Shown one piece after another: positions 3,486 to 28,155 of a DNA stretch of 28,155 nt. The notes below the pieces were generated by a model. It did no database searches. It was not told the origin of the DNA and saw only the letters and a program-made list of their open reading frames with translations. The DNA comes from Psammoneis japonica. Lineage: Eukaryota. Numbering within the stretch: position 1 is the stretch's first letter; each line of letters begins with the position of its first letter. Where the stretch lies: contig QPGO01000040.1 of NCBI GenBank assembly GCA_008632985.1, forward strand, positions 501,719-529,873, written 5' to 3'. The position numbers and the translations under genes were made by a program.

Positions 3486-5013
3486 ATGAAGACGAAAGAA
3501 GACATGACAACTTCTCTGGATTCGTCAGCCTTACAGAGCACCCTAAATGGTGGTGAGACTCCCTCCGTCAAGCGAATCAAATTGAATGACTCAAAATCAT
3601 TCGTCACGCCACGCAGCATCTCTACGGAAAATAGCGAAAACAAGCCTTCAGAAACATTTCCAACTCCGCTGTCTCAGGAGAAAGCCCAGGAATTGTTTCA
3701 ACGAGAAACCAAACACAAAACGACCTTATCGAGTACCAAGAAACGTACGGATTATCTAACGTGGGACGATTACTTCATGTCGGTCGTTTTGTTGAGTGCT
3801 CAGCGTAGTAAGGATCCCACCACCCCGACCGGAGCCTGTATTGTCAATAGCGATAACCTTATCGTGGGTATCGGTTACAACGGATTTCCTCGGGATTGTT
3901 CCGACAATGTCTTGCCTTGGCATGATTCAAATCATACGGAGAAAAATACAGACAAGACTCCTTGGCTGCAGACCCGAGACGCATATGTTTGCCACGCTGA
4001 AATCAATGCGATTCTCAACAAGTGCAGTGCCAACGTAAAGGGCACGAAACTGTATGTCCAGCATTATCCACGTAAGTTGTGCCGTTTCGTCTGAAATATT
4101 CTTATATTCATACTGTAAGGGCTCGTCTCATTTCAATCTTATGCTACACAACCTTATCCCGTTCAAATCTACAGACAACGAGTGTGCCAAGGTCATTCTT
4201 CAAGCTGGAATTCGAGAAGTTGTGTATATGACGGATACTCAACACGAAAAAGAGGAGTACATGGCGAGTCGCATCATGTTTGCCATGGCTGGGATCAAGA
4301 CTCGCCAATACACACCCACTCTTTCTAGTGTCGTGCTTGACTTTGTTCAAAGCATGGCACCGACAAGTGGACACGAGACGATGATGATGATTCCCTCCAA
4401 TAATCAAGCAACGGATAATCAAGACTGCGAGCGCATGCAGTTTTGCAAACATCTCTTGGCCACGGAAGTGGGCGATTCCTATGACATGTCCAAGGCACCC
4501 TTGATAAAACGACAAGACTACATGTCGTGGGACGACTATTTCATGGCCATGGCATTCTTGACTGCCCAACGAAGCAAGGATCCAAACACTCAAGTCGGCG
4601 CCTGTATTGTGGATTCGAAGAAACGCATTATTGGCGTCGGCTACAATGGTTTCCCCCGAGGTTGTTCCGATGATGTCTTGCCTTGGTCACGGTCCTCTCC
4701 CGAAGGCAGCTTGTTGACAAAGTACATGTACGTATGCCATGCCGAAGTGAATGCTATTCTCAACAAGTGCACCACAGACGTGGAGGGTTCCACGCTCTAT
4801 GTCGCACTCTTTCCCTGCAACGAATGCGCCAAGTTCATTATCCAATCGGGAATCAAAGAGATTGTCTATCTGAGTGATCAATACCATGACGTGGATTGCT
4901 CCAGGGCCAGCCGGGTCATGTTGCAAATGGCCAATGTCACGACGCGACAATATGTGCCTAGCAAACAAGTTATTGAAATTGAATTGAAAGAGGCTTCCAA
5001 TGAGGCAAAGTGA
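3486..5013 (+). CDS. DCTD: dCMP deaminase with two tandem deaminase domains; exons 3486-4071 and 4175-5013
   Basis: Two copies of WDDYFM...AQRSKDP...GACIV...GYNGFPR...CHAE.NAILN. The C-terminal domain has PCNECAK. A GTAAGT...TACAG intron restores the frame. Confidence 0.9.
4072..4174 (+). other. Spliceosomal intron (103 nt, phase 1)
   Basis: GTAAGT donor at 4072, CAG acceptor ending at 4174; splicing joins YP-H-NECAK. Confidence 0.85.
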
Positions 5014-5103: not shown

Positions 5104-5760
5104 TTATCTTCGTTTCAATTCTCTCCGTTTTGGTTTGCGTCGTTTTCGTTTCGGCTTTTCTTCTTGTTGTTCGTTCTCTTGAAAGTATTCGTGCAGCATT
5201 CTGTCAATCTCCTTGTCACGCCCGGTGCGGTATCCCGCCATGAATTCGGACAGACATTCCGTCGCTAGCTTCATTTGTTCTCCCGCCCACCGTTTCAAGT
5301 CTTCTCCCGAGTGAATTCCAGTCTCGTCTTGCACCTTGTTCTTCCAATACGTTCCTTCCTCTTGAACAAAATCTAAGTTTTTACTGACATTCTCCTTGAC
5401 TGATTTCTTTTTCTGCTCGATTGTTTCAATCAACTCTTCCTCGTCTTTTTGTATTGTTCCTTCTTGTTCCTTTTCCTTTGGAACCAAAAAACCTTCCCAC
5501 GTGCTCTTGTAGTCGGTCCACGTCCACGACGCAACTAATTTCCATTCGTTCAAAGTGCGTGGCATTCGATGAGGCCCGTCCTCATTCTTTGATTTTGGAT
5601 TGGGCAGAGGCTGGCCAAAAATGGCAGACTCTTTTCGTTTCTGGTCAACTGTGAGATGGAAATTTCGGAGAAACGCCATTCGCAGCGGTACATTACGACA
5701 TTGAAAACAGTTCTGCAAGACGAAAAATCGAGTCGCCATGGACCTTTGGTGGCATGACAT
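5104..5760 (-). CDS. Hypothetical protein ('gene X'), possibly organelle-targeted
   Basis: 218-aa ORF with normal composition, Arg/Phe-rich N-terminus, charged helical core and basic tail; convergent with the deaminase gene. The start may be the ATG at 5739. Confidence 0.7.
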   Translation of the reverse strand: MSCHQRSMATRFFVLQNCFQCRNVPLRMAFLRNFHLTVDQKRKESAIFGQPLPNPKSKNEDGPHRMPRTLNEWKLVASWTWTDYKSTWEGFLVPKEKEQEGTIQKDEEELIETIEQKKKSVKENVSKNLDFVQEEGTYWKNKVQDETGIHSGEDLKRWAGEQMKLATECLSEFMAGYRTGRDKEIDRMLHEYFQENEQQEEKPKRKRRKPKRRELKRR

Positions 5761-6203
5761 TTTATAAAGGTGGCGGGCAATTCATACAACAAACGATTTG
5801 CGGACGGCACTTGAGATAAGTATCGTCATGTTTCTTGCTGCTTGAGTGTGAGAGTGATGAGTGATTTGCGATTGGGGTCTGGCGGCCTGCGCGCTGCGCG
5901 CAACCACTATTCTCCGTTCGCCCATCATCCGCCACGCACCACGCCACGCACCGTCGACCTCTCGTCGCCTCTCATCACTCGCTTCTCGCTCGCTCCACCC
6001 CAGCGACCTCATTCACGGTATAATACGCGTTACTTCGTCGTCATAATATATCGCGTTACTGTCGATAACAGTAACTGTCAACTGTTTGCGTTCACAGTCT
6101 GGACTCGTGAGATCACAGTGTTTGTGAAATACTGTGCTGAATTCGCCGAGACAAGAGTCGATTTTTGAGTGCAGCCGCGAATCCAGTTTGACATTGCTGC
6201 AGA

Positions 6204-7370
6204 ATGGAAGACGATGCATCTGCTAGAATCCTCGGCACAATGGCACGAGCTGCAGGAGAGTCAGAGGAGGTGTTGTCATCAAGGCGACATGTCGAAATTG
6301 AACCAGGGTGTGAAGGATACGTCAATGCCAGAAAAATTCTCGTGCGCTCGAAGGATTTAGTTGAATTGCCAGCCGAGATCGGCATGTTGCACCGACTGGT
6401 GGAGTTAGACTTGGGGTATTGCCAAAATCTCCAGCGACTGCCTCCAGAGATTGGGCGATTGACGAACCTCGAAGTGCTGCATCTTTTTGAATGTCGCAAT
6501 CTCGTCACCTTGCCAGATGAGATTGGACGATTGACAAACTTGAGAGAGTTGCGATTGGATGGTTGTGTCAAGCTCGAACGACTGCCTCTTAGTTTGAATC
6601 GGCTCTCACGTCTTGAGGTGTTGGACTTAAGTTCGTGTAAAAGTCTCGTGGGGTTGCCAAGTGACATTTTCCATTTGACAAAATTGAAAAAATTGTCCAT
6701 GTGGAATTGCGAATCTCTCACTCGGCTTCCCCCGGGAATTGGACAGTTGCATCAATTGGAAGACCTCGACCTTTCCGGTTGCGAAAGCCTCACTGAGATT
6801 CCTGTTGAGATTGGTCAGCTGTCGAACCTGAAAACTCTCTCCTTGCGTGACTTGTCGCATGGCGCACGAGAATTCTTACAAAACATTGGCACAAGCAGTC
6901 TGTCGAATTTGACAAAGTTGGGTTTGAGCAGTTGTCTTGATCTCGAAGAGCTACCTCCCGCAGTGGGATCATTTCAGAAGCTAGAACAGCTGAATGTCTG
7001 GAGCTGTAGGAATTTGACTCAAATTGGCAAAGAGGTTCTGTCGCTGCCGAGACTCAAACATCTCAGTTTGTGGGGTTGTGCTGCTCTCACTGTTTCTCCC
7101 GAAGAAATCGGCAAGGCTTCGTATTCTCTTGAAAGTGTGCAGATGCCCCACTCTGCATCCCAAGATGAAATGGACTGCTACTGCGATATGAACAAGGCCG
7201 GACGACACCTGCTGCGTCGAGAAAATGGAGTTCCTGATGCTCTCTGGCCGCACGTCTTGGCGGGTCGTCGAAGCGACGAGAACTTTATATTTTGGATCTT
7301 GAAGCACAACCCGAACTTTGTAAAGAAACGAGTCAAAAAAAGAGGAACCAAGAGAGCTCGCGAGGAATAG
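6204..7370 (+). CDS. Leucine-rich repeat protein (24-aa LxxLxLxxCxxLxxLPxxIG repeats), copy A
   Basis: About 10 LRRs of the plant-NLR-like type, a C-terminal NKAGRHLL...LWPHVL...FIFWILKHNP motif and an NLS-like KKRVKKRGTKRAR. Confidence 0.9.
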   Translation: MEDDASARILGTMARAAGESEEVLSSRRHVEIEPGCEGYVNARKILVRSKDLVELPAEIGMLHRLVELDLGYCQNLQRLPPEIGRLTNLEVLHLFECRNLVTLPDEIGRLTNLRELRLDGCVKLERLPLSLNRLSRLEVLDLSSCKSLVGLPSDIFHLTKLKKLSMWNCESLTRLPPGIGQLHQLEDLDLSGCESLTEIPVEIGQLSNLKTLSLRDLSHGAREFLQNIGTSSLSNLTKLGLSSCLDLEELPPAVGSFQKLEQLNVWSCRNLTQIGKEVLSLPRLKHLSLWGCAALTVSPEEIGKASYSLESVQMPHSASQDEMDCYCDMNKAGRHLLRRENGVPDALWPHVLAGRRSDENFIFWILKHNPNFVKKRVKKRGTKRAREE

Positions 7371-8153
7371 TGAGTTTTGTGTGGACGTTTTGTAAACATG
7401 TTGTGGAGCGGTCTCAATTCGATGACGGTAGATGCTGTGTACTGTAGACTAATGCAATGTAGCTTTCTATGAACGCGCTTGCTAGACCCAATGACTATCT
7501 CATTGATGCCATTAGAATGTAGCCATACCCTTTGTATTACGGTAGACCAATATCTTAATGCAACCAGCTTTACACGCGAAAGAGAGTGGCGACAATTCAA
7601 GAATCTGCATGTGGATTCTCAGTGAAACAGTTGTCGTATGGTATTGCCATTCAAAAGAAGCCATACGCTAGTTGAAACGCTTGTTACATGTCTTTACATA
7701 AGGACCTCTCATTGTCTCGTCGGCCCGAAAGCCACGTTGCGTTTCACGACGAGCATGTGTCACCGCAGGGACGTTGTTTCACGGTAAGAATGGCTCGGAA
7801 ATGATCCAGTTAAGAGCACTACAGCCGCAAAATCTCTACCGCGTAAGTTGTGTAAATGCACAGCGATAGTACCGTAGATGCACGTTACTATCCTTTTCGT
7901 TTCTTATGGACGTGATTCAGGTTGTAGCTATGCGCCTTCTTTAAATAATAACAGATACCTTAGCAAAGCAGACAGCTACTTACTTGAAAACTTCCTTTTC
8001 CTTCTACCTTGTGCCGCATCTTCCGACGATTGGGCAGATCATATATGCAGACGTATCCAAGCGTGCATACGGTATGTGAGTTGTCGAGCGTATTTTTGTC
8101 TCAATTCGTGATGAAAGCGCCGCTGTTAAACTCGTTTGATTGGCGCAGAGAAC

Positions 8154-8521
8154 TGACCAGCCACACATGTATATACTGGTAATATGCTTGATTCAAGGTT
8201 TGTCTTTTGCCCTGTCATTGTAATATTCTCCGTAAAGGAACGGATTATCAGTTTCCAAAAGGACTTTTGAGTGGGCTCGTGTGTCGATTCCATCTTTCAT
8301 AATTCCAAGTCAAACACGGAGCTCATGATGACTTCAAGAGCTCATTGGAGTGTGATACTGCCTTTTTTTCTCTGTATTTCGGTCGACATTGCATCCTCGA
8401 CCTCCAACAATGCCAATGGATACACATTTACTCACTTGATGGCCGAGCCAGCCGGCCACTCCAGACACGTCGTCACGATACTGCACATTGAGCCATCTCA
8501 AGTAGCTTCGACCCAGTCCTC
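8154..8521. repeat. ~368-bp segment repeated at 9396-9759 across the N gap (probable second haplotype or assembly overlap)
   Basis: Near-identical copies with a few SNPs/indels; the second copy starts directly after the Ns. Confidence 0.85.
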
Positions 8522-9363
8522 GGGAAAAGTCAAAAAAGTGTACCACCCGTGAAGTGCACTACTACTTCAAGTGCACTCTCGAGTACACTTATGACTCTCA
8601 GGTAGAATTGTACGTACTAAAGTAATGTCGTTAGTCTACGTAGCCATGTACTGCTCAATGCTTCATTCATGAATATAGATTGAAGATTTGACAATGACAC
8701 CACAATGACTTTTGAGAGAATTACTTATGTGTGAGGACTTTTCGGGAGAACTAGCGTGGTGTAATCGCCACCTTCGTAGAAATGTGTAGGACATGTACCA
8801 AGAACCTCCAACTTTGCTTTTTGGTTGCATTGGTTGCAATCAAAACAGTGCCAAAAGACAAAAGCAATTCACCGCAAAAACTTGCACATCACATTCCAAA
8901 ATACATGATGGATTTTTGGGAGAAAAAACTGGGTTGAAATTGATGTATCGGCTGGCCTTATCGATCGTAAAGCAAAGTACACTTAATTGTCCATTCGCGA
9001 CCAAGGCACGACTTAAGTAGAAATGTGTAGAAAATGTACTAAGCTCCTTATTCTGCACTTTTTCGATGATCTGGATACGATCGAAATAGTGCCAAAATAC
9101 CTAGACCAATTGACCACCAACACTTTTGCGGAAAATGGTAAATTATATGACAGAGCTTTAGGAGAAAAAACCGGGTTGAAATTGATGGCTATGCTGAACT
9201 TGTCGAACGGAACACAAAGTACACTTGGTTGCCCAAAAAGTACACTTACGACTGAAAAGTACACTTACGACTGAACGCCGCACGTAGAATTCTACATGGT
9301 CATCTGGTACATTGGAAAAGGTACACTTCAATTACACTTGAGTACACTCATTTGTCTTTCCTC
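8522..9363. mobile_element. Non-autonomous DNA transposon (MITE-like), ~840 bp
   Basis: Absent at the homologous sites ccagtcctc|aaa at 9759 and 28059. Imperfect TIRs (gggaaaagtcaaaaaagtgtac vs reverse complement gaggaaagacaaatgagtgtac, 17/22). Many GTACACTT/GTGCACT motifs and an internal ~241-bp tandem duplication. Confidence 0.7.
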
Positions 9364-10429: not shown

Positions 10430-12860
10430 GCCCATGTCTGATCGCACTGCCTGCGTTTTTCTTTTTTGCCTGAGACGGTTCGCAGCGCGCTCCGGACAAG
10501 CGCACAGACCATCACCACGGTGAATGACTAACTCCATTCCATGCCATGCATTGCCAGCAGCCAATGGAAATTGAACGGAAGTTGCCGATGACGACAGTGG
10601 ACTTCATCGCGCAACTGTTTCCTGATGAACATCACCATTTCGAGTCCCATTGCAACAGCAGGCTTGTTGCACTGCCTCATGTGTGGGGGTGCGAAGGGGC
10701 CATCAGCGAAGTGGCAGCGAGCCAAGAAGTGTGCAAATGCGCCGCTCCAGCTGTTCGTGGTGTCACCACGTTGCATGCAGACAATGTGTCAACTCACCAT
10801 TTGCCAGATTTTGGGCACCTGCTGAGTCAAAGCTGGTGGAAATGCAAGAAAGGGTCAATGGGTGACTGATTTGTGGTGGTGTGAGACACGTTGCTCCTCA
10901 TCTTTTGGTGGAGAAAGCTCGATCGCAAGTCAGAGACCGCGTGAATGTCATGCAAATGTCGTTTTTGTGCACAATTTGGTCCACGTGTGGCTGGACACAT
11001 CAGGTTGGTTTTGTGTCAGAGCTGCCAGTGAGATGGAGAGGGAGCTGCTGTGGCGGTGTGATCTTCAAGAAAGCAAAGGATGTTGGCCCCAGATTTTCCT
11101 GTGTGCAGAGCAACAACTTGGATCCCAGAAATTTTTGAGGCTGCAGTGAAGCAACTCTGATGGCTCAGTCACTTTGATTTTGTTGATTTGGCAAGAGTCT
11201 GGTTGGAAAGAAAAAACACACAGGATGAAGTTTGCTCACAAGATTCTTGGTGTGTGATCAAAGAAAAAACACTTTCAAACAATGTCGACAGCATTGCATT
11301 GATGCCAAGATGCCAACATCCTGTGGGATGACAAAACCAAATGAGTTGAGCTTCCACACCTTGCTTTTGTCCAGTGCTCTGGATTGCTGACCTCAAAGAC
11401 ACAAATGTCAAATCTGAAAAGGAAAAAGAGTGAGTTGCTTGCAACAAGTTTTTGTGGGTTGCTTTGCCTTTGTGCAGCATTGAAGAAGTCAACCACAGTT
11501 GTCAGGAGGCCAGCCATGGAATGGAAAGCAGAACACAGCCATGAAATGGGTCGTGTTGATGTCATCATGATCCAATGTCTTGTTGGTGTTGAGAAAGGGT
11601 CAAAAACAAAAAAACAAACATTTTCATCACACCGCTGGTCATGAGTCTTGAATCCCACTTAACCCATTTGACTCAAAATTTTCGGAAGATTTGGCTGGAC
11701 TTTGATCTCCTGCTAGAGACACAACACAAATGCCCAAGGTGCGGGCATTTTTGGTCTCCAACACCTCAAATCAATGTCTTGTGAGATGGCAAAATCACAA
11801 GCATGCATTGTTTGTGGTGTTGCATGTTTGACAACAGAGCTGAGACTTTTCAAGGAGCTCCCTCATCACACATGGGAAAGCATGAGGGGCAAATTTCAGT
11901 GGCTCTGTGACCAGTGCAGCTCTCTGCATGTCACCCCAAAACGTTGCTGGGAATTTCTTGCATTGGCGTGATGCCAGTTGGCTGGAAATGTGTTTTGGCA
12001 AAACATGGGGGGGGGGTTGTGACCACATGCTGAAGCAAAGCATTGGGCCTCACAGCTGCAGAGCTGTCAGAGGAGACACCACGGTTTCACTCTAAAATTG
12101 AACCAGAGCATGAAGGGGGAGAGTTGCCAGCCAAAATGGGTGCGCTGTGCCAGCTGGCAGAGTTGAGCTTGAAAAATTGTGCAAATCTCCAGCAATTGCC
12201 TCCAGCAAACAGACAATTGACAAGACTCAAAGCAAGTGTAAAATCCCACAGATTGCTGTGGGCCAACCGAGTTGTTGCCTGATGAGATTCGACGAGTGGC
12301 AGCTCAAGGGCATTTTTGGGCTGGATGGCCATGTCAGTCGTCTTGAGTGGTTGCCTCACAGTGCTTGCACCAGCTCTTGTGTCTCAAAGTGTTGGGCTTG
12401 ACATCTCATGCAAAAGTCTCAAGGGGCTGCCAAATGATGTCTTCCTTTTGAGAAGTTTGAAATGTCTGATCTTGTCGAGTGTGGAGCTTCACATCTCCTG
12501 CCTTGTCGCTTGGCCACCGTCTGGAGCTGGTGGGGGGTAGATTTTGCATCAGTTGGAAGTCCTTCACCTTTCACACTGCAATGGTCTCACTAAAATTCAT
12601 GTTGAGATTGGTGTGCTTTCCAAGCTGAAAACTCTCTTGTGCTTGTGTGAAGTGTCGCACTGCACACGAGATTTCTTGCAAAACACGTTTCTGCTTGTGT
12701 GCCTGAGCATGCTGGGCTTTTGTTGTGGTCCCGAAGAGCTACCTCCTGCAATGCGATCACTTAAAAACCTGGAGGTCGTGCGGATGTGGAGCACTGTGCA
12801 CAATTGACTCAAATCAGCAAAGAGGCACTGTTGCTGCCAAGTCTCAAACTTCTCAGTCGA
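10430..12860. other. CpG/TpA-depleted hypermutated domain 1
   Basis: About 9 TpA seen in 2.4 kb; ORFs lack Tyr and are Cys/His-rich. Confidence 0.85.
12050..12860 (+). pseudogene. Degenerate, 3'-truncated LRR paralogue, copy B
   Basis: Fragments ELPAKMGALCQLAELSLKNCANLQQLPP, CKSLKGLPNDVF, HQLEVLHLSHCNGLTKIHVEIG and EELPPAMRSLKNLE align to 6204-7370, with frameshifts. Confidence 0.85.
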
Positions 12861-13133
12861 ACAGACGATCTGCGCGTTGAAGTCATGACGTCACACTAGC
12901 AACGCTCGGGACTGGAACTCGTGACCGATGAGACAGCAAACTTCGCGCGAAAAAACAGCTGAGCGCTTTTCGAAGCGGGACTTCAGCACTTCGCACTTCG
13001 CACAAGATTTCCAGATTGACATCATGATGTTGCATGCGCGTGATCACGTGATCACTCACAAATCTTGCACACCGCAAGCCGTAAGAACCAAGAAACCGAA
13101 CACAAAACAAAACCAGAGAGTATCCGAGAGAGA

Positions 13134-16928: not shown

Positions 16929-17939
16929 CTGAGGCTTTCCTCTAGACACACAGCACCATGTCATTCATAAAGCTTTCTACTCTAGACACACGCCTGTATT
17001 ATCACTGACAACAAAGGTTGCCACTGCTAATGAGCTTCCTCAGATGATTGGATGGTGGTGTTCTATGGATGCACATTAGGAAATGTGGCTGAATCGATAC
17101 AGTTGAAGCTGAGACCAAAAACTGTTTTTCAGTGATAAGTACTTGTAAACCTAAACCTGTGAATTCAACACTGCCATCACAGTAACACAAATGGCCTTTC
17201 TCAACAATAAAACTCGCAAACGTTGCGTTTCGGGTTTAGGGCTTTCTATTGTAGCCTTTGGAACAAGGACTCAGAACTGTGTCTTTGTAAATGGAGTGGC
17301 ACTCCATAAAAACATTCAGTTGTCTGCTTTGGCTTCAGAACAACCTGCAATCCACACCCTTGCATCTGGGCCTTTGGGTGTGGTGGCAGGGCAACTGGGA
17401 AAAAATGAGATGCCTTCCAGCCCTGGGTGGAAAGAAGTTGTCAAAAACAACCACACACCACCACCACACAACTTGCAAAAAACACATCATGTTGTTCCAT
17501 GTGGAACATGGTGGCCATGTCAAGAAGATTTTGAAGTTTGCTTTGAAATGAAATGTGGGTTTGAAGACACAACATTTGGAGCCAGCTGGAAATGGCTGCT
17601 GAGGTGCTGGGTCAGCTTCCATTGGAACATTTGGTGTGGAGCCCAGATTCCAAAGTCAATCTTTGGCATCACACACAGCTGGTCCACTGAGCCCAAGCTT
17701 CCCTGCAACTGCTGTTGCTGCAGCTGGTGCAACTGACTTTGTGGCGGGAGTTTAAAACCAACAGCTTGGGGGCACCCACCTGAGTCCCAGTGCTGTGCTG
17801 AGCTTCCCAAAGCTGTGGCTGAGCCCAGAACTGGGCCACTGGAAGCAAAAGAGTGGGTGGGGCAGAAGCTGGGCCATCTCAGCTCTGGCAAAGTGCCGCT
17901 GGCATTGAAACAACAAGAGGCTGCAACAACAACAGCTCA

Positions 17940-18480
17940 TTGACACTGGAGTTTGCTGCTGGCATTGCTCCAAAGTGCTCCTGCCCACCGGTGTGCAGCA
18001 GGCAGTTGCTCTCTCCTTGCACATGCTTTTCTTGTCCCCTTTGTTTCAATCAACTTCTCCTTGTCTCTCTGCATTGTTGCTGCTTCGTTTTTTTTTCTTT
18101 GGAGCCAAGAAGCTCTTGTGGTTGGTCCATGTCCATGACACAACTGGCTTTCATTCATTGAAAGCATGCAGTGTTTGATGAGGTGTGCACTTGGCTGGCC
18201 AAAAAGTGGCAAACTCTTTTTGTTCCTGGGTGGCCTGACTGTGAGATGGAAGTTTTGTTTTCTGAGAAAAGCCATTCCTCACAGAGGTGCATCACAGCAC
18301 TGAAACACACCATTTCTGCAAGATGAGTGGAGTTGTTGCAGTTGGCCTTTGGTTGCTTGCCATTGTGAGTGTGGCACCACCGGGAGTGATGCTTGCAACA
18401 CAAAATGATTTGTGAATGGCACTTGTTGTTCAAAAGCATCATCATGGTCAATCACTTTTTTTCTTGCAGCTTGTGCACAG
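17940..18480 (-). pseudogene. Hypermutated partial copy of gene X and its upstream region (5250-5845)
   Basis: Collinear nucleotide alignment; ORF remnants MAFLRKQNFHLTV...LFGQP and EKLIET. Confidence 0.85.
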
Positions 18481-18975
18481 CTTGTCATTTGTGTCATTGT
18501 GGCAGCCACACTCTCAGGCAACTCCAACATGAGAATCACACATGCCTTGCTGATGTGGTTGGTGTGGCAATTGCTCACCATTTTGCATGAAAATGACAGT
18601 GGATGGGAAATCTGAAAAGGCAACGGCAAGTGACAATCAGACACCACAAAGCTGCAAAGCACATTTGTCAAAGCTGCATGTTTCCAAGCAAAGTTCCAGA
18701 AGAGCCTTTTCCAGTCAAATGGGATTCTTGGGCACCACTCATCATTTTTCATTCAGTGAGGTGATTTCTCCTGAGGTGGGAAATTGTGGCTCCAATTTTG
18801 TGCAGAAAATTTGCAGAAAGGAAGGGACATTGCAAAGTCAATGAACAGACAACAGATCAACATCACAAACTGGCATTCAGAACTCATCTCTTGCACTGCA
18901 TGAGGGTGACAGCCAACTGGGTCATGACTCAAGTGAGTCATGTGTGTCAGCAAAACACACTCCAGTGGCATGTCG

Positions 18976-18999
18976 ACACACACACACACACACACACAC
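18976..18999. repeat. (AC)12 microsatellite
   Basis: Direct observation. Confidence 0.95.
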
Positions 19000-20069
19000 T
19001 GGAAAGAAATCAGGGCACCCAGACTGTGGAGGATCTGGCAGAATGCCAAAGGTTGATGATGACAACAACATGAAAGACTCCCCAAGCACTGGGACTGTGA
19101 CAACATGAGTGTCAGCAGAAGAGAACAAGAGGCAGATCTCAGAGAGATCTGCCGGCCCATCCAAGAGGTCTGGCCATCATCCACACACAGTCTGTCCATC
19201 ATGCAACAGGCAGACTGACGGGATCTCCTTGGATCTTCCTCCACTGACTTTTGTTTTGACCAGCAACAAGTCATCATCACTGTTCTGGCACATGTCAGAT
19301 TGTGGCACTTTTTCCCAATGGGCCCAGAACGCCCACTGTCCCAGAAATCACTGCAATGATGACATGTGCTGATGCAACCTCAGTGTCAATGCTTTGGACT
19401 TTGCTGGGGCGGGGGGCATGATGAGCCACCTCAGGACTCTTCTCCAGATGAAGCACTTCCAAAAGATGCCATCACACCCATGGACAACACCTTCAGCAGC
19501 TTTTGTGATCAGCTCACCCATCTTCAATTTCCCGTCCATGGACAATGACCACCACCTTCTCCATCACACCTGCATGGCACCTGTGTTCAAGATCAAGGCA
19601 GCACCAAACAAGGCCACAAAGTGACTGCATTTGGTCTGCACAGGGGATCATCTGTTTGACAGCTGCCCTGCTCTCAAGAACAACCCACACATCAAGGGCT
19701 TCCACACCCACTTTTGTCAGGTCTTGAAATGAGAGGCTGCAAAATGTGCACCTGCATTTGTTGGCAGCCCAAGAAGTTTGCCTGCTGGACAGAATGGGCA
19801 AACACTCGTGAAATCTGAGAACTCATTGTTGGATTTTCAACCAGGCTGTCACAGCCAGTTGTGGACACCTGCAATGCTGCCCACTCTCTCTTCACTCAGA
19901 CACCACAATGACAGCTGGGGGGCATTGAAGAGTGGTTGCCAGCTCCAACACCAACCAGTGCAAAACCTCTTTCTCCAGTTGACACTTCTGCATCCACCAC
20001 TCCTGCAACTTTGTTGACAACTTTCAACATCAATGTGTCAGCACCTGATGACACTTTTGTGCCACTGCA

Positions 20070-21232
20070 TGCCACACGTCAGCTCAGGGAGGGATCAAGA
20101 GCAGGGGAGGGCAGAGGAAACTGTCAAGCCCTTTTTGGAACCATCCCCACATTGGAGTGCTCAGATTGTGATGATGCTCTTGGCCTCACCACCATGTGTG
20201 CACTCAATTTCATGTCAGCAAGGTTGACGAAGCCTTTGCCACATGGCACAAAACCTGTTTTGGAGTTGACCTTGATTGGAACGTGGAGAGTTGCCTGTCA
20301 TGTGTGCACATCCAGGTCACCCTGAGGAGTCTGGAATTTTGACTGAGTGCAAAGCTCTTGTTCTCCAACACCACCCATGACAAGTGTGTCTGTGCATCCA
20401 CCCATGAGGGCAAGTGCACTCTCCTCCAGTGGCAAGTTGAAGACTTCTCAATCATGTGCTGTCCAGAGCATCTTCTTGGGCCATTGTTGTGTGCACATGT
20501 CATTTGTTGCCTTGGCGCTGGGGGCACACAATTGCAACACTCTCCAAGTTTGCCTTGTCACCTGCTCCAACTCAGTTTGCTGCTTTGGCAGACATTGCAA
20601 AGTGTCTTTGTTGCACCAAGTGTTGGGGTGTCAGCTGCAAGAAATCTTGGGAGGATCTTTTGCCACCTGCCTGTCTGTTTGAGCAGCTTGAGGTTGACCC
20701 ATCTTTGTCTGCTTTCCCTTCTGCAAAGTTGCTCATGCAGCTCATGGCTTTCTTGGATGCTGTTTGTGGCAATGACCTTCAGAACCACCAGTCCACTGCT
20801 GCAGGGCATGGATGCACTTTGGCAGGCACTGCAATCTCCTGCCATTGCAAGATGCAGCCAGCTGCTGTGGGTGACTCTGCTGAGGCTGATTTTGTGCCGC
20901 TGACACGCCACCACCAAGCATGTCCTGCATTCATGTTCAGTTCTTCAAGAGCTCTTTTTTCCCAGCCTGACCCCACTCCACTGTTTGTTGATGATGAGCT
21001 GCCTGTCATCAAGATCATCAGCAACCATGTTCCTGCTGAGCACTTGCAGCACCACACTGACACTCAGCAGATGTTGGCCACAATTCGGGGTTGGAAGGAA
21101 GATGGTCGGCACTCTGCCACAAGACACATCATTCCTGGCTGTGTCAGCGCAAGTGATGATCTTGCCAAGGCTCTTGGGTCGATGCTGAATCCCTGGTGCC
21201 ATGCTTGTTGCCTCATGGGACACTTCCATTGA
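20070..21232 (+). pseudogene. Copia RT/RNase H remnant
   Basis: FSNTTHDKCVC...LLQWQVEDFSI (YxDD-equivalent), ATLSKF, AFLDAVCGNDLQNHQST...AEADFV, QPDPTPLFVD, ASDDLAKALG, LMGH. Confidence 0.8.
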
Positions 21233-21615
21233 GACACAATGTCTCCATTTGTTTGGCATTTGGCACCTCCTGCTGCTGAACAGCACCTTGTGCATTTGTT
21301 TTGTTGTCCATTTGTTCTTTGGTCATCCAGCCTGCAATGTGTTTTTCACTGGTCAGCTCTGACTTTCCTGCTTTCCTTTTTGTTCTGTCTGTGATCTGTG
21401 CTGTCTCTGGTTTGGACATGCTGGATCAGGGAAGGGTGTCAGTTGACTGGCACTGCCACACATGGGTGACAGGAAATGACTTGTGTGGCACTGAGTCCAT
21501 GCAGAAAATGTGCAGAAAGGAGGGGGTGTTACAAAACTCAATGAACGGACCAACCTGACAAACAACCAGTGTTTGGAACTTGAATCTTGTGCACAATGAG
21601 CACGCAGCATGTTTG

Positions 21616-24600
21616 TGTTGGAACATCAGGGCAAGAGGCAGCTTTGGGAGTGTGTGATGTGCTGACAACAAACACTGACTTGGTGAATTTTCTGTTTGTT
21701 GCTCTTGACAAATCGCAGGGCTTGTTCCCATTTTTTAGCTTCTGCACCTGGTTGACATGACCACAGTGGCAAAAAAGGCAAAAGATGTGTGTGTGTGTGT
21801 GTGTGTGTGCAATCCATGTGGTGAGTTGAGGTCAGTGAGACCAAGTGACAACCAGCAATCTCTGGAGGGCCTTGCTGCAGGGCAGCTGGAGGGTCTGCCA
21901 AGGGAGGGTGCAGCAAGGATGTGTTGGACTGGAACACTGGTTGAGGACACAACAGCTGAGCATGGAAGCACAAAAGATTAAAAGGAGTGGGCACATGATG
22001 CCATTGCTGAGTTGGGCAGACAGGTGGGCAGTTGCATGGAAATGCAAGAAAGACAAGTGAGTGTGTGGGAAGAGTGTCCAGGCCAGAGATGCAGGTGTTG
22101 GCATCTCTGAGGCAAGAGAACAGGCCAGAGGAACCAGAACATCCACTGGGCATGACTGCATCAGAGAATGACAGGGCAATCTGGGGGAAACAGTGTGGTC
22201 ACTGCATGAAACAGGGTGCAATCCATGAGATGCAGAAGGTGAAGGCATTCAATGTGATTGTGGGACAGTGTGCAAAAGCTGTCCATCACAAGCTTGGAGT
22301 GACAGAGTTTGCAAAGGTCACAAAGGAATGCAGTGTGATGGCACACCATTGGAGGACACAATCAATTTGATCCTGTTTGATGCAGCCAAATGAGAGAGTG
22401 TGCCCGCATGTCCAGGTGGTCCTCAAGGCGTGGAAATGACTGGCGCTCATTTGACAGCATGGAGAAGTGCTTTGAGACCACCACAGCTGGTTTGCAAGCA
22501 CTGCAGAGATGGTGGAAGGGTCATGTTGCAGAGTTGTCCCCAAGGAAATCACCAAGAAAGAAAAAGGGTGCAGGTTGGATGCTGACATCCATTGGGGGGC
22601 TGAATTTATGAATCCTCCTGGCAGCTGGCTGACAAGCAGACAATGGTCAGAGAAAAAGTTTGTGAGTGCAAGCACATGAACTCATTTGTGATCCAATTCA
22701 TCACATGTCACACCTGTTCATGACAAGTTGGTGTGATTTGAAGTGAGCAAATGTCCTTTGCTTTCCAACAAATGTCCCCAAGTTTTCCAACTAAGAAGAG
22801 GTCAAACCAACAAGTTTGGCACAAATCAGCAAGTTGATGCCCACACAAAATGTTCAATTGGACAGTTGCCATCTAAAGTGCAGCTTCTGCAGTTGAGTGT
22901 CGCCATGGAATCTCACATTGAAAAATGAAAACAATGCCACTCACAGGTTTTTATCTGCCAAACCACCATCAACTCCAGTTTGCAGATCTTGGTGCAGCTG
23001 GCCATGTGGTCTCCCTCAGCACCCAAGTTCTCAAGTCCTTCACCTCCCTGCTTTCCATGGCTGGCTGCTGTTGTTCAACACAAATCTCCCCATCAACCAA
23101 GTCATTCACTTGTGATCATGTCTCATTTGATCTCCTTGACCGGCTCTTCAAAGAACTTGTTGGCTCTTGGCGGCCATGTCCCTTGCTTTTCCTTGGCATC
23201 TTGCATCATCTCCCTGTGCCTTCCTTTGCTGGGCTCAAGCTGCTTGGTGCACACTTTCTCTTTTCTGCAACAATCTCCTTTCTGTGAGCCCCTTGTCAGC
23301 AATGCTCTCAAGCTCATTCACAACTTCTGTCAGAGCTGAGAGTTGCTCCTTCATCTTGTCATGCCCTTGTGTCATTGGAAATGGCACAATGCTGTGCTGC
23401 TTGCATCAGCTCAAATCTTGCTCAACATCAACACCCAGCAACACTTGCAGCTGATCTTGTTTTTGCCATGCAGCATGCCTGTTTTGTCCAACTCAATTGC
23501 TTTGCACCAAACATGAGTGTGATGCTCACAAGTGCTTTTTCTTTGGACATGATCTCTCATCTTGATGATGTCTCTGCCAACCTTTTCATCATTGGCTGTC
23601 CACTTCCTCAGGCTGGTGTCTGTCTCTGAGCCACAGTTGCAATGTTTGACAATTGCCTTTTGTGTTGTACATGTTTGCCTGCACTTGCTGTGGTGGCCAG
23701 CACTGCTTTGCACACTGTTGCAAGCTGGCTTTCCCTTTTTGTGTTTTCTCTTGACTTGAAAAAGCAGAATGGATTTAAAATTGCACCCCTGAGTTTCAAA
23801 AACATTTTGATCATTTGTGACTGTGTGCGTGAATGACACAGTCTGTGAATCGTTCACAAAGAGAGTCGCCACCAGAGGCAATTCTGTGTTCCCTGTGCTG
23901 CACTGTGATTGGTCAGAAGAAATGACCCCCCTCTTTTTCATCACTGGCTGAGTCTTCAGAATCACTGGAAGAAGGGGCCTGATGCTTGTTCCTCTGTGCC
24001 GCCATTCTTGAACTGAGTCAAATGGGAGTCACCATGGTGCTCAGGAGATTTCTCCACACACCACCATTGGGCATGCAAACCTCACCCCGTTGATGTGGTG
24101 AAAACAAAGAGTGCAACAGTTGACAGGGTGAATTTTGTGCAGAACTCTCATGGAAAGGACAAAAAATTGCCGTCGAAGTCATTTCACACAAAGAGGAGAC
24201 CAAGTGGGTTTTTGAGGGAAATCACCATGTTGACATTGCACTTGATGGACTTCACAAAGCAAGAAAAAGTTGACAACAAGAGAAATCACACAGAAGTGTC
24301 ACAGAAAAGACAAACACACTGCAATGTTGGTTGCTTCACACAATGGACGAGTGCCGGATTCACCGTCGCCTTGCTCTGGATGTTGCCCTGACAACCAAGC
24401 ATGTCAATGTCCAATGTGAAAAACTTTGGTGAATGCACAAATTTCATTTGACATTTTCAAGAAACTGCCAAGTGGAAATGTTCACAGCAACAATCAAATG
24501 CAACTTTGCAGATTTGAACAAAATGATGCCGGACAGTCACGTGGCGACTGTTGTCACATGAGCCAAGATGTGACAAAAAATGAAATGATTTGGTCATGGG

Positions 24601-25410
24601 GCAACAGCCACGTGCTTGCTGAATGAAAATGTGGAGAACAAACAAAAAAGGTCAACTGCCAACAATCAAGCATCATGTGTTTCAATCAGAGATGGGCTGA
24701 TGCAACAAATCTGAGAGCGCGCTCACTGGGCCAAAGTGCCAAACACAATGCCCTGTGACTCATGTGCCCTTTCTCGCCTCTCTGATGACACCCAGAACAA
24801 GGAAAGGAACAAGTCATTGGTGGCTCTGCTGATGGAAGGCACCAAGGGACATTGCTTTGTTTTGAAAGACCTGCACAGGCAGCTCACATTTGGGGTTGAC
24901 AACAGCTGGGAGGCACTGCTGCAGGTGTTGAACACGTGTTGTGCCAACAAGAAAACCCTGGGACGCAAGTTTTGCAGAAGGCAAGAAGAAGCAGCTGAGG
25001 TGCTGGAAAAGGTGGCAAGATGGGGCATGCTGAGAAGAACTGCCCTTTGCTCAAAGAAGGTGATGGCTGGCAACGACTCGTCAGCTGCATCAGATGACTT
25101 GGGACACGAGAATGTCGGTGGAGCAGCAGCCGACATGGTGTTGGGTGGCATGATTTCCAACTGTCATCCACCCAGGACAGGCACACATGAGGCCAATCAA
25201 TTGATGGCTCATGTGAAGGAGTGTGTTGGAATGTCAGGGTGAGAGGCAGTTGAAGAAGAACAGACAGACAGTGTTGAAGTGTGCGACATGCTGAGAACAA
25301 GTCAATGGCGCGTGGTGAATTTGCGTTCTTTGTTGCTCTCACGAGGCTTGTTCCCACTTTTTAGCTTCCGCACCCAGTGAACACGGCAAGAGCAGTAAAA
25401 ATGACAAGAC
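21616..25410 (+). mobile_element. Degenerate LTR element 2 (gag-only remnant), apparently inserted in the 3' LTR of element 1 and itself interrupted
   Basis: LTR-like direct repeats starting TGTTGGAA at 21616 and 25224 (alignable for ~170-190 bp); PPT-like gaaggagtg at 25215-25223; gag-like AIWGKQ...AFNVIVGQC...KL (22150-22370) and ALLMEG...LKDLHRQLTFGVDN...LQVL (24800-24940). LTR 3' ends and TSD are unresolved. Confidence 0.65.
21786..21809. repeat. (TG)12 microsatellite
   Basis: Direct observation. Confidence 0.95.
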
Positions 25411-25614: not shown

Positions 25615-28155
25615 ACTGTACGTTCGCTGTCATAACACGCCGTCACTGTCGACAACAGTCACCATCAAATGTTTGCGTTCATCGTCTGACTCGTGAGATC
25701 TTTATTTTTTTGTGAAAGACGGTGCGCATCCAGTTCGACATTGCTTCACAATGGACGACGATGCATCTGCTAGAATCCGGAGTGCAATGGTACGAGCTAC
25801 AGATCTGTCAGAGAAACATTTTTCATTGTGGGTTCGTTTCGAAAATGAACCAGAACACGAAGGATTCGCCAATGCCAGAGAAATTCGTGCGCAGCATTGC
25901 CTTCGGTTGGTTGAATTGCCAGCCGAGATCGGCATGTTGCACCGACTGGTGGAGTTGAACTTGAGGTGTTGTGTAAATCTCCAGCGACTGCCTCCAGAAA
26001 TTGGGCGATTGACAAAACTCGAAGTGTTGAACCTTTCATGTTGCAGTAGACTGACCGAGTTGCCTGATGAAATTGGACGATTGACAAGCTTGAAGGAATT
26101 GTCATTGTCTTGTTGCGACAAGCTTGAACGACTGCCTCGTAGTTTGCATCGGCTCTTCCGTCTTGAGGTGTTGAACTTGTCAGAATGTGGAAGTCTCGTG
26201 GGGTTTGCCAAGTGACATTTTCCGTTTAAGAAGTTTGAAAAGGTTTTTTGTCNTGTTGCAGATCTCTCACTCGGCTGCCCCCGGGAATTGGACAGTTGCA
26301 TCAATTGGAAGACCTCGACCTTTGTCATTGCAACGGTCTCACTGAAATTCCTGTTGAGATTGGTCAGCTGTTGAAGCTGAAAACTCTCTCTTTGTATGGC
26401 TTGTTGCATTGCACACTACAAGAATTCTTTCAAAACATTGGCACAAGCAGTTTCTTGAATCTGACAAACTTGGATTTGTGCGGTTGTCGTGGTCTTGAAG
26501 AGCTGCCTCCTGCATTGGGATCACTTCGAAACCTAGAGGGGCTGAGTTTGAAGGGCTGTAAGCAATTGACTCAAGTTAGCAAAGAAGTTCTAGTGCTGCC
26601 GTGTCTCAAAAGTCTAAGCTTGTGGCGTTGTTTTGCGCTCACTGTTTCGCCCAAAGAAATCGGCGAGGCTTCGTATTCGGTTGAAAGTGTTCAAATGCCC
26701 ACCAATGAGTCTCAAGGTGAAATGGACTGCTACTGTGAAATGAACAAGGCCGGACGACACCTGCTGCGTCGAGAAAGTGGAGTTCCTGTTGCTCTCTGGC
26801 CGCACGTCTTGGCGGGTCGCCGAAGCGACGAGAACTTTATATTTTGGTTCTTGAAGCACAACCCGAACTTTGTAAAGAAACGAGTCAAAATAAGAGGAAC
26901 CAAGAGAGCTTGCGAGGAATAGTTTGTTCTATGTTGATTTCTTTTAAACACACAGCGGTCTCAATTCGACTACTTGTGGAATAGCACAATGTAAGCTTTC
27001 TATGAACGCGCTTGCTCTAGACCCAATGACTATCCAATTGATGCCATTCAGATTGTAGCTGTGCCCTTTCTATTCAACCAATGTCTTACTCAATGAAACA
27101 CCAGCTTTCCTCGTAAAAGACATCGCGACGATTCAAGAATCTGCAGCTGGATTCTCTGTGGAAGCAGTTGTCGTATGGTATCGCCATCCAACAGAAGCCC
27201 TAGTAGGGCACAATAGTAGAAATGCTTGTTACAGGTCTATCGCACCTTCCTCTCATTGTCTCGTCGTCCCGAAAGCCACGTTGCGTTTCCCGACGAGCAT
27301 GTATCACCGCAGCGACGTTTCACGACACGAAAATGATCTATTTCAGAGCAACATAGCCGCAGAATCACTAGTGCGTAAGTTGTGTAAATGCACAGCGATA
27401 GTACCTTAGATGCACGTTACTATCCTTTTAGTTCTTTTTGACGCGATTCAGATTGTATCTATGCGCCTTCTTACATATGACAGATACTTTAGCAAAGCAG
27501 AGAGCTACTTACTTGGAAACTCCCCTTTCCTTCAATCTTGTGCCGCATCTTTCGATGATTGGGCAAATCATATATGCAGACGTATCCAATGTGCATACAG
27601 TTACGTGAGATGTCGAGAGCGTCTTCTTTTGTCAAAATTTGGAGTACCTCTTCGCCAATTCGTGATGAAAGCTGCTGTGAAACTCGTTTGATTGGCGCAG
27701 AGAAATGACCAGACACACGCGCATATACTGGTAATGTGCTTGATCCGTGCTTTGTTTTGTGCCATTTTCTCGTAATATTCTCCGTAAAGGAAGGGATCGA
27801 CAGTTTCCAAAAGGACTCGCGAGGGCTCGGGTTGAGATTCCAACCTTAATATTTCTAAGCCAGACAAGTGATGAAATAAAGATAACATTGGGAGTGCGCT
27901 TCTTCCTTTTTTCTCTGGATTTCTGGCAAATTGTATCCTCGTCCTCGAACAAGTCGAATGGATACACATTTACTCGCTTGATGGCCGAGCCAACTGCCAC
28001 CCAGACACGTCGTCACGATACAAAGACATTGAGCCGTCAAGTAGCTTCGACCAGTCCTCAAATTAAAATCCAAAAATCCATGGCTTCTTGTTTTGCGATT
28101 TTGCATATATGCAGCAAAGACGATTGGCCATCGTTCAACCTGAATCGCCTTACAG
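25615..28155 (+). repeat. Segmental duplicate of ~6030-8521 plus 9760-9860
   Basis: Collinear similarity through the upstream region, LRR CDS and >1.2 kb downstream. Confidence 0.9.
25751..26922 (+). CDS. LRR protein copy C; net -1 frameshift at 26200-26255 next to an N (likely assembly error)
   Basis: Full-length paralogue of 6204-7370 (MDDDASARI...KRACEE); the indels fall in T homopolymers. Confidence 0.75.

Follow-up and report, generated by a model that had tools for sequence, protein, structure and literature searches.

Paralogous leucine-rich repeat genes of Psammoneis japonica diverge mainly at the strand-turn positions of a putative binding face

In a 28,155-nucleotide stretch of the diatom-like alga Psammoneis japonica (hereafter the window; contig QPGO01000040.1 of assembly GCA_008632985.1, positions 501,719 to 529,873, forward strand), two paralogous leucine-rich repeat (LRR) genes, copies A and C, differ mainly on one face of the encoded repeats. 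The differences are concentrated at positions 5, 7, 8 and 10 of a 24-residue register, where the rate of replacement exceeds that of silent sites and of the duplicated flanking DNA, and the remainder of the protein is constrained. This face-biased divergence had been proposed in a preliminary description of the window and is confirmed here; the interpretation offered with it, that the paralogues diverge at ligand-binding positions in the manner of immune receptors, is supported in part. On balance, our preferred explanation is that A and C belong to a multi-copy intracellular LRR-only family in which the binding face is under diversifying selection and the rest is constrained. The variable face would bind ligands and, by analogy with known recognition receptors, these may be non-self or otherwise fast-changing, as in immunity-like recognition.

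The locus and its copies

The features of the locus are collected in Table 1. An in-frame stop at 6189-6191 lies just 5' of the ATG of copy A, and the homology to copy C begins 27 bases 5' of the same ATG. The encoded N-terminus of copy A is acidic and has no hydrophobic stretch resembling a signal peptide, and read contigs from the same organism match the gene at ~99.7%. Copies A and C are part of a 2.4-kb duplication with 79.5% identity. Their 3' flanks differ at 199 of 1092 aligned bases, with indel lengths that are not multiples of three, and this duplicated 1.1-kb flank (0.18 raw divergence) served as the neutral yardstick for the rate comparisons. Copy C matches A in two frames, with a stop after the equivalent of residue 152; the breaks consist of an extra T at ~26204 and a 2-base deficit beside an N at 26253, and since both fall at T runs, one of them next to the N, they are possibly assembly errors. 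With one intact copy (A), one broken (C) and one dead (B), the locus fits the birth-and-death cluster that had been suggested for it, and the identical scaffold stretches and near-identical C-terminus that had been noticed between A and C are present.

Table 1. Features of the window relevant to copies A, B and C (position 1 is the first letter of the window)
Feature	Position	Strand	Remarks
Copy A, stand-alone LRR gene	6204..7370	+	Intact single ORF, 388 aa
N-terminal 51 residues of A	6204..6356	+	Acidic, predicted disordered (pLDDT 42-58), fast-evolving
LRR domain of A	6357..7124	+	Partial repeat and 10 repeats
HCS position 1 starts	6396, 6468, 6540, 6612, 6684, 6756, 6828, 6909, 6981, 7053	+	
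Hypervariable codons	start+12 to start+29 per repeat		Register positions 5, 7, 8, 10
Conserved C-terminal tail of A	7125..7367	+	Small predicted helical module ending in a basic NLS-like cluster (7323-7367)
Duplicated 3' flank of A	7371..8521	.	Common to C; apparently non-coding
TA-/CG-depleted block 1	10530..12900	.	Contains B; TA observed/expected 0.01-0.11
Copy B, dead relic	12055..12860 (approx.)	+	Several stops and indels, without tail
TA-/CG-depleted block 2	17310..25360	.	TA observed/expected 0.00-0.06
Copy C, paralogue of A	25751..26922	+	Two frame breaks, otherwise open and constrained
3' flank of C	26923..28059	.	Homologous to 7371-8521

Many further paralogues exist in the same organism. 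From one sequencing run, 135 read contigs fell on 6100-8600, 55 of them less than 90% alike, and one scaffold site is covered by up to 14 contigs. Among the matches listed, similarity breaks at the borders of the hypervariable segments (6428, 6476, 6623, 6715-17, 6775 and 6854), and the letters between these joints encode, among the read contigs listed, yet other LxLxxC variants. The allelic variation of copy A itself looks very low in the one sample, among the read-contig rows listed, and gives no hint of a balanced polymorphism. Protein collections, searched at similar and at shorter lengths, returned generic LRR proteins alone, at 49% identity or less, and no close relatives of A. In the JGI metagenome contigs, a locus search based on the tail gave 187 pattern matches, none of which was confirmed, and 0 matches came from an exact DNA pattern of the scaffold.

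Predicted fold and the conserved tail

The Pfam search of copy A, against a set without PF27087, found 11 LRR families above the cut-offs and no other family (best LRR_14, 1.4e-27; also LRR_R13L1-DRL21, LRR_RPS2 and LRR_13), in agreement with the initial view of a stand-alone protein without NB-ARC or TIR. There is no Pfam match to NB-ARC or NACHT in the 388-aa ORF, nor in copy A to a TIR, CC, CARD or PYD signalling domain, to Ras/ROC or COR, or to the LRRNT/LRRCT cap families, and no transmembrane segment or kinase was found in it. The best match in the protein databases (P0002) is a TIR-LRR protein, and it aligns over the LRR part alone. The ten repeats stand in one register of 24 residues, LxxLxLxxCxxLxxLPxxIGxLxx. 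AF2 models the LRRs at a pLDDT >90, with a 3-residue strand at positions 3-5 and helices at 17-21 of each repeat, and the DSSP register of this model was the basis for judging surface exposure. Foldseek matched the LRR to Leptospira LRR proteins, SHOC2 and the LRR of RPP1 (E down to 6e-14). Copy A is a member of the LRR superfamily, of the 24-residue typical or plant-NLR-like class, with a predicted curved solenoid.

The N-terminus evolves fast and the tail is conserved. In the N-terminal region, 49 of 167 bases differ between A and C (dN 0.40, dS 0.42, NG86), as against 21 of 260 over 7111-7370, and residues 308-388 have a dN of 0.07 and an omega of 0.47. The tail carries the motif LN+xGRxLL ... 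VPxxLWPxVLA ... FL+xxPxL. Searched with phmmer it gave 17 matches at E<=1e-3 (best 5.7e-8), and a profile search gave 19 matches at E<=1e-5, 16 of which carry PF27087 in precomputed annotation; R35 and W49 of the tail are invariant in 32 sequences. The NLS-like character first ascribed to the tail is borne out in that the basic C-terminal end is conserved in these relatives, which are other LRR proteins. A model of the tail alone has 4 helices (pLDDT 75). For this fold, Foldseek gave no match in the PDB at E<=0.001, the best Z in the wide VIA-align search was an uninformative 3.7, and the best ESM Atlas score of 0.81 is within the noise range. The LRR family labelled PF27087 is unnamed, a cluster look-up of the proteins related by the tail returned neither names nor taxa, and a literature search found no mention of the accession. 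Its members have the same C-terminal motif as A and C, followed likewise by a KRKR-type cluster; however, they are mostly of the ribonuclease-inhibitor type (LRR_6) with 28-residue repeats, whereas in A and C the tail is joined to 24-residue NLR-like repeats. The tail may signal or localise the protein.

Diversifying selection may be real and the role not immunity, if the variable face met self partners such as mating or gamete factors, selfish elements, or the substrates of a nuclear adaptor, which would then resemble SHOC2-like or F-box-LRR scaffolds. The LRR-only composition without a known signalling domain, the nuclear-type basic end, the scaffold SHOC2 among the closest solved folds and the low allelic variation described above for the sampled strain would all suit such a role, as they would immunity. 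Yet the precedents for the positional pattern are mostly recognition receptors, such as plant R proteins and the ROCO-LRRs of Ectocarpus (PMC3341825). We regard a non-immune role as possible, on the doubtful side.

Position and rate of the differences between A and C

At positions 5, 7, 8 and 10, a class to which position 10 was added after the data had been seen, 33 of 38 codons differ between A and C, compared to 33 of the 199 other LRR codons (Fisher 6e-17). By register position, the amino acid differs in 10/10 repeats at 8 and at 10, in 7/9 at 7 and in 6/9 at 5, as against 0-3 of 10 at each of positions 13, 14, 17, 18 and 21, and the heterogeneity among the 14 x positions gives a chi-square of 58.1 (13 df, p 1e-7). 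Divergence spread evenly along the repeats is therefore not what is seen. The seven pairs of differing hexamers that the preliminary description had listed are all present, in repeats 1, 2, 3, 6, 7, 8 and 9. Its assignment of the divergence to the xLxLxx positions holds for the end of the strand and the following turn (5, 7 and 8), but positions 2 and 3 differ in only 1/10 and 4/10, and position 10, which directly follows the conserved Cys, varies no less than position 8. Two or three base changes have accumulated in 18 of the 38 hypervariable codons and in 15 of 199 elsewhere, and one of these multi-hit hypervariable codons is a Ser-to-Ser switch (AGT/TCA). The convex x positions (13, 14, 17, 18 and 21) have a pN of 0.09, although from repeat to repeat they vary as much as the hypervariable positions. 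At the hypervariable sites copy B matches A in 25 cases and C in 21, a split that places changes on both lineages.

The codon tests rest on the single pair of A and C, the latter with its frame breaks, and the pairwise codon likelihood was computed with our own script; on that footing, positions 5, 7 and 8 have an omega of 5.2-5.7 (LRT 34-37, p about 1e-9), the class {5,7,8,10} one of 5.9 and {2,3,5,7,8} one of 2.9. The core residues of the same pair have an omega of 0.14, from which it follows that the divergence is not pseudogene decay. The counts point the same way, since the pN of 0.50 at 5, 7 and 8 stands against a gene-wide pS of 0.22 (Fisher 1e-5) and a flank divergence of 0.18 (1e-8), and with position 10 included the pN reaches 0.54, compared to 0.18-0.22 at silent sites and in the flank. 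When a separate silent rate is given to positions 4-10, omega for {5,7,8,10} is 3.5-3.8 (LRT 12-13, p 3-5e-4), and the likelihood test for such a local silent rate is itself not significant (p 0.16-0.17). Thus the diversifying rate proposed for the strand-turn positions stands for 5, 7 and 8 of this pair, where replacement exceeds the gene-wide silent rate, the 3' flank and, with position 10, the local silent rate. The suggested check of dN/dS >1 divides by method and class: the likelihood gives such a value at {5,7,8}, and NG86, using the small silent count of the class itself, gives an omega of 0.82 for {2,3,5,7,8}. Against the local pS, the hypervariable pN is marginal (Fisher 0.056).

The silent sites themselves leave room for a second process. 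Silent differences look enriched about twofold in positions 4-10 (10/32 amino-acid-identical codons against 20/139, p 0.04), with a dS of 0.55 there and 0.20 at core codons (p 0.03), and so part of the excess could stem from patchy exchange or clustered mutation. Carried to its limit, this becomes a mosaic exchange without selection, in which short patches of conversion or template switching from diverged paralogues repeatedly overwrote the strand-turn segment, and the conserved Leu and Cys codons, being common to all donors, seem untouched. It is consistent with the many paralogues whose similarity to A breaks exactly at the strand-turn segments, with the divergent patch of repeat 2, which extends through positions 10-14, and with the LTEL version that C has in repeat 2 and that is common to another paralogue contig. 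However, neutral copying predicts a neutral proportion of replacements, and the omega stays at 3.5-3.8 even with the silent rate of the segment itself. For none of the 20 strand segments (0/20) is a non-orthologous donor within A or C clearly closer, and because the repeat-specific scaffolds on both sides stay orthologous, ten separate patches of at most 18 bases each would be needed. The dS of 0.20 for positions 12-22 equals the raw flank divergence of 0.18, which argues that the scaffold was not homogenised by conversion. We therefore think exchange without selection unlikely as a full account, and exchange and selection are not mutually exclusive; in plant R-gene clusters both act.

A relaxation of constraint, with C a decaying pseudogene whose variable positions were free to drift, would explain its two frame breaks, the overall omega of 0.71 and the equal divergence of coding and flanking sequence (18%). 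But drift cannot beat the neutral rate, as the pN at 5, 7, 8 and 10 does, the omega of the core shows that constraint acted on both copies during most of their existence, the breaks in C may be artefacts of assembly, and hypervariable changes lie also on the lineage of the intact A, which together make this explanation very improbable.

The TA/CG-erasing signature of the depleted blocks is found, among the copies, in B alone, and A and C are without it: at the dinucleotides kept in both A and C, 3/3 TA and 11/15 CG read TG or CA in B. The preliminary description had also speculated that a neighbouring mutator helps to diversify the family, and this did not survive, as changes from TA to TG/CA between A and C number 6 against 6 in reverse and TA occurs 19 times in A and 21 times in C. 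The gene in question encodes a tandem protein of the dCMP/cytidine deaminase family, which acts on free nucleotides. That the hypermutation or the adjacent deaminase made the A/C differences is hardly credible: C does begin ~390 bases from the end of block 2, one Tyr-to-Cys change is TAT to TGT, and CG-to-TG/CA changes number 17 against 8 in reverse (not significant), but 96 of the 210 A/C differences are transversions and the Cys gains of C (21 Cys, 12 in A) come also from GAA, GGT, AAT, TCC and AGC.

With diversifying selection on the face as the preferred reading, it can be hypothesized that the members of the family would share one layout, in which some ten repeats of 24 residues follow an N-terminus that varies and precede a helical tail that is conserved and closes with a basic, NLS-like stretch. 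Purifying selection would keep the tail, the helices of the convex side and the hydrophobic core; these parts presumably maintain the fold and make contact with a shared partner or with the machinery of nuclear import. Positions 5, 7, 8 and 10, i.e. the last strand residue and the turn, would be replaced repeatedly under diversifying selection, and, as they line one continuous face, each paralogue would have a different binding surface. The family would turn over by local duplication and loss, copy B having probably been destroyed inside its hypermutated block.

Relation to known LRR systems

The signature of diversifying LRRs is textbook knowledge for plant resistance genes. The LRRs of plant NLRs and receptor-like resistance proteins share with A and C the repeat type LxxLxLxxCxxLxxLP, the clustered paralogues with birth and death, and the excess of replacements on x residues of the strand and turn over a conserved scaffold. 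The differences are that A and C have no NB-ARC, TIR or CC, transmembrane segment or kinase and close instead with a short helical tail whose terminus is basic, that they vary at positions 5, 7, 8 and 10 and not at the plant-type 2, 3, 5, 7 and 8, and that their host is diatom-like and not a plant. The variable lymphocyte receptors (VLRs) of jawless fish are likewise LRR-only, and their diversity lies on the concave strand and adjacent positions, including one after a conserved Asn/Cys. VLRs are built by somatic assembly of cassettes, carry LRRNT/LRRCT caps and are either secreted or anchored, whereas A and C are paralogues encoded in the germline, in which neither caps nor a signal peptide were detected. 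The best structural matches, the LRR-only proteins of Leptospira (4u08, E 6e-14, TM 0.56) and SHOC2 (~E 1e-12), share the stand-alone architecture of A, a likeness of the generic solenoid at 25-33% identity and without the tail of A and C; we are not aware of a hypervariable family with many copies in this group.

Closest by host are the LRR-ROCO proteins of Ectocarpus, also a stramenopile, for which Zambounis et al. 2012 (PMC3341825) describe 24-residue LRRs, a high birth-and-death turnover, positive selection on solvent-exposed LRR residues, ROC-COR GTPase domains and repeats each corresponding to one shuffled 72-base exon, and propose the proteins as immune receptors without functional proof. 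Unlike these, copy A has all its repeats in one uninterrupted ORF and no ROC-COR. The principle is therefore not new, as the signature is already known in plant resistance genes and has been reported for the ROCO-LRRs of this brown alga (PMC3341825). What the findings here would add, from one paralogue pair and partial read-contig data, is its extension to an architecture without a known signalling domain. A search of the open literature, which did not cover a 2015 survey of Phaeodactylum LRR proteins, gave no report of a diatom family of this kind.

To our knowledge, next to nothing is known of the receptors by which diatoms and related organisms detect viruses, bacteria or parasites, and an LRR family of many copies that combines a hypervariable face with a conserved tail provides concrete candidates and a testable surface. 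A wider picture can be offered tentatively, and we hold it to be rather doubtful: this diatom-like alga probably has at least a dozen germline-encoded, nucleus-targeted LRR-only proteins, with a strand-turn face in an arms race and an undescribed tail module for output or localisation that also occurs in RI-type LRR proteins of related protists. The whole would form an intracellular, innate immunity-like system without NB-ARC, TIR or kinase, in which duplicates that fall into silenced DNA would be erased by TA/CG hypermutation, as copy B may have been. If this is true, genome defence would shape both the birth and the death of the LRR repertoire.

Copies of the LRR gene and their neighbourhood

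The window looks to be eukaryotic DNA. Copy A of the stand-alone leucine-rich repeat (LRR) gene is an unbroken ORF with an in-frame stop immediately 5' of it, and a Pfam scan returned LRR families exclusively, the top one being LRR_14 (1.4e-27). Using the copy A protein as the query, we found two further copies in the window, B and C. Copies A and C lie in a 2.4 kb duplication of 79.5% identity that includes ~1.15 kb of apparently non-coding 3' flank. Three reading frames are needed to read copy C: a surplus T at ~26204 creates a stop following the residue equivalent to aa 152, and 2 bases are missing next to the sole N (26253). Because both lesions are at T runs, both frame breaks may be assembly errors. 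Position 6236 is C in the window and T in all aligned contigs of X1 and X2, two sequencing runs of one organism; this mismatch and the N at 26253 hint that the assembly is locally uncertain. A 368-base stretch occurring twice around a 32-N gap, with 98% identity, probably reflects duplication during scaffolding or assembly, not biology. Copy B has multiple stops and indels and is without the C-terminal tail.

Among the neighbours, the two domains of the deaminase gene fall in two overlapping ORFs in different frames, suggestive of an intervening intron or frame break. The dCMP/cytidine deaminases are a nucleotide-metabolism family.

Features of the window
Feature	Position	Strand	Remarks
Pro/Thr-rich protein gene	1-2097	+	IgA-peptidase-M64-like domain, 1.2e-11
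Deaminase gene	3390-5013	+	two dCMP/cytidine deaminase domains, E 9e-15 and 3e-32
Lys-rich gene	5104-5760	-	adjoins copy A upstream
Duplication, A side	6177-8521		
Copy A	6204-7370	+	388 aa product
368-base stretch, first	8154-8521		
N gap	9364-9395		
368-base stretch, second	9396-9759		
Purged block 1	~10530-12900		TA- and CG-depleted; contains copy B
Copy B	~12055-12860		
Alpha/beta hydrolase gene	13065-14254	+	weak chlorophyllase-like match
Tyrosyl-DNA phosphodiesterase-like gene	15268-16928	+	weak match
Purged block 2	~17310-25360		TA- and CG-depleted
Lys-rich gene relic	18015-18363	-	
Duplication, C side	25724-28059		
Copy C	25751-26922		

Distribution of the differences between copies A and C

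We used the 24-residue register L1xxL4xL6xxC9xxL12xxL15P16xxI19G20xL22xx, in which copy A has ten repeats (starts at aa 65, 89, 113, 137, 161, 185, 209, 236, 260 and 284); its first, partial repeat has register positions 12-24 only. Three codons of repeat 5 (gap or N in C), columns inserted in C relative to A and the irregular second half of repeat 7 were excluded from the counts. The amino acid differed at position 8 in 10/10 repeats, at position 10 in 10/10, at 7 in 7/9, at 5 in 6/9, at 24 in 6/10, at 3, 11 and 23 in 4/10 each, and at every remaining position in 0-3 of 10. At the hypervariable positions 5, 7, 8 and 10, 33 of 38 codons were changed, compared with 33/199 in the rest of the register (Fisher 6e-17), and 18 of these 38 codons, against 15/199 elsewhere, carried 2-3 base changes. 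The 14 x positions on their own were strongly heterogeneous (chi-square 58.1, 13 df, p 1e-7). Moreover, the convex-side x positions 13, 14, 17, 18 and 21 each hold 4-8 different residues among the repeats of A, equalling the hypervariable ones in between-repeat variety, yet they are conserved between A and C (pN 0.09), so the pattern is more than x positions being free to vary.

The preliminary description had listed pairs of divergent strand hexamers and identical scaffold stretches, all of which we found in the A/C comparison. Its assignment of the variable face held in part. In an AlphaFold model (LRR part pLDDT >90) the strand is formed by positions 3-5 and the helix by 17-21, so the variable residues occupy the end of the strand and the turn that follows, in line with the description; positions 2 and 3, however, are not notably variable, and position 10 is. 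Five repeats of copy C have Cys at position 8 and so read LxLxCC. This copy contains 21 cysteines versus 12 in A, with the surplus derived from six different codons, which may represent convergence or a CC-type variant frequent in the family. LHLMCC can also be read in the listed letters of one other paralogue contig.

Selection and its alternatives

Codon likelihoods were computed pairwise with our own GY94-type script on 385/388 codons, using F3x4 or equal codon frequencies. For the A/C pair, the proposed dN/dS check at putative binding-face sites gave omega >1 at positions 5, 7 and 8 by likelihood. At these three positions pN was 0.50, compared with 0.22 for pS across the gene (Fisher 1e-5) and 0.18 for divergence of the flank (Fisher 1e-8). 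Evenly spread divergence, named beforehand as refuting the idea, is not what we see, the differences being concentrated at 5, 7, 8 and 10. The concentration of LRR divergence at strand and turn residues is confirmed as an observation for A and C.

Divergence between copies A and C
Measure	Region	Value
Raw	CDS	210/1164, 18.0%
Raw	Duplicated 3' flank	199/1092, 18.2%
Raw	N-terminus	49/167, 29%
Raw	Last 260 bases	21/260, 8%
Nei-Gojobori	Whole gene	dN 0.19, dS 0.27, omega 0.71
Nei-Gojobori	Core positions	omega 0.14
Nei-Gojobori	Classic {2,3,5,7,8}, own small silent count	dN 0.47, dS 0.58, omega 0.82
Nei-Gojobori	{5,7,8,10}	dN 0.95, dS 0.46, omega 2.05
Likelihood, shared silent rate	{5,7,8}	omega 5.2-5.7, LRT 34-37, p ~1e-9
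Likelihood, shared silent rate	{5,7,8,10}	omega 5.9, LRT 51
Likelihood, shared silent rate	{2,3,5,7,8}	omega 2.9, LRT 18.8, p 1.5e-5

Silent differences seem to be enriched within the variable segment as well. Core codons 4, 6 and 9, which lie inside it, have a dS of 0.55 versus 0.20 at the remaining core codons (Fisher 0.03), and silent change in amino-acid-identical codons affects 10/32 at positions 4-10 versus 20/139 elsewhere (p 0.04). Patchy exchange or clustered mutation may therefore add part of the excess at this segment, and a simple count test of the hypervariable codons against the local silent proportion was marginal (Fisher 0.056). With a silent rate of their own for positions 4-10, omega at 5, 7, 8 and 10 was still 3.5-3.8 (LRT 12-13, p 3-5e-4), and in the likelihood model this extra parameter was not significant (p 0.16-0.17). 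We looked for conversion among repeats within and across A and C and saw no sign of it; the scaffold dS of 0.20 (positions 12-22) matches the flank, which argues that the scaffold is not undergoing homogenisation. Diversifying selection at positions 5, 7, 8 and 10 is the best reading.

The neutral rate is the upper bound for drift. Pseudogene decay as the source of the differences is rejected, since the hypervariable sites exceed that rate and the core omega implies constraint on both copies through most of their history. Where A differs from C and B can be aligned, B sides with A in 25 cases and with C in 21 if the site is hypervariable, and in 20 and 48 cases if it is not; changes occurred on both lineages. 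The speculation that a neighbouring TA mutator may have contributed to diversification of the copies fails, with 6 TA-to-TG/CA steps from A to C and 6 in reverse, 19 TA in A and 21 in C, transversions making up 96/210 differences, and the cysteine gains of C coming from six different codons.

Both purged blocks have a TA observed/expected of 0.00-0.11, scarce CG and over-represented TG+CA. Copy C, starting ~390 bases past block 2, is unaffected. Copy B has TG or CA at 3/3 TA and 11/15 CG sites that A and C both retain, and this dead copy bearing the signature of its block shows that a duplicated host gene has been destroyed by the hypermutated compartment, or after entering it. In fungi, RIP restricts gene duplication, and the loss of copy B recalls this. 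Hypermutable integrated viral DNA is reported for Bigelowiella natans in a preprint whose text includes the terms 'TpA' and 'hypermutation' (10.64898/2026.01.13.699255). Block 2 also contains a decayed relic of the Lys-rich gene (protein identity 33-36%, DNA identity 66%). The original duplication may have covered both the Lys-rich and the LRR gene, with ~7 kb of now-hypermutated DNA later splitting the relic from C.

The wider family and its possible role

The last ~80 residues, a tail with a basic end, are the best conserved region between A and C (dN 0.07). A phmmer search with the tail against 1.84 billion representatives gave 17 proteins at E<=1e-3 (top 5.7e-8), 10 of them with LRR_6 repeats upstream of it. 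Common to the relatives is the motif LN+xGRxLL...VPxxLWPxVLA...FL+xxPxL, followed by a KRKR-type cluster, and residues R35 and W49 of the tail are invariant across 32 sequences. A profile search among longer proteins found 19 at E<=1e-5, 16 of which bear a precomputed PF27087 label. A model of the tail by itself has four helices (pLDDT 75), and comparison of this model with solved structures gave no informative match. Conservation of the basic end in relatives supports, at the sequence level, the NLS-like character ascribed to it.

Read contigs of X1 and X2, aligned to the window at 80% likeness, give independent, partial support for many paralogues built of conserved scaffolds and hypervariable inserts. 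On 6100-8600 there are 135 contigs from X1 and 26 from X2, those of X1 falling at >=99% (31), 95-99% (24), 90-95% (25) and <90% (55) likeness; contigs of copy A itself show 0-2 differences per 290-570 bases (4 records). As many as 14 different contigs cover a single scaffold site (6797). Joints and loose ends among the rows listed gather at the borders of hypervariable segments (11/15 LRR boundaries within 3 bases of one), and the letters between joints give further LxLxxC segment variants. Protein collections and JGI metagenome contigs yielded no close relatives; the top protein match, a TIR-LRR protein, covers the LRR part alone (identity 46% over 43% of A). A 249-base contig in each of two sediment-metagenome runs matches 7278-7523 with one difference, which places this organism, or one very closely related to it, in such samples.

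The divergence signature of A and C equals that of plant resistance-gene LRRs, bearing out the likeness to plant NLRs put forward in the preliminary description, and that of Ectocarpus ROCO-LRRs (PMC3341825). Unlike these, the A/C gene is without NB-ARC, TIR, ROC-COR or kinase domains, and it also lacks the exon-per-repeat structure reported for the ROCO-LRRs. A conserved tail is shared with RI-type LRR proteins. We consider it moderately likely that selection has acted on the putative binding face of the A/C LRR, and, by analogy with these systems, an immunity-like role of the family is plausible.
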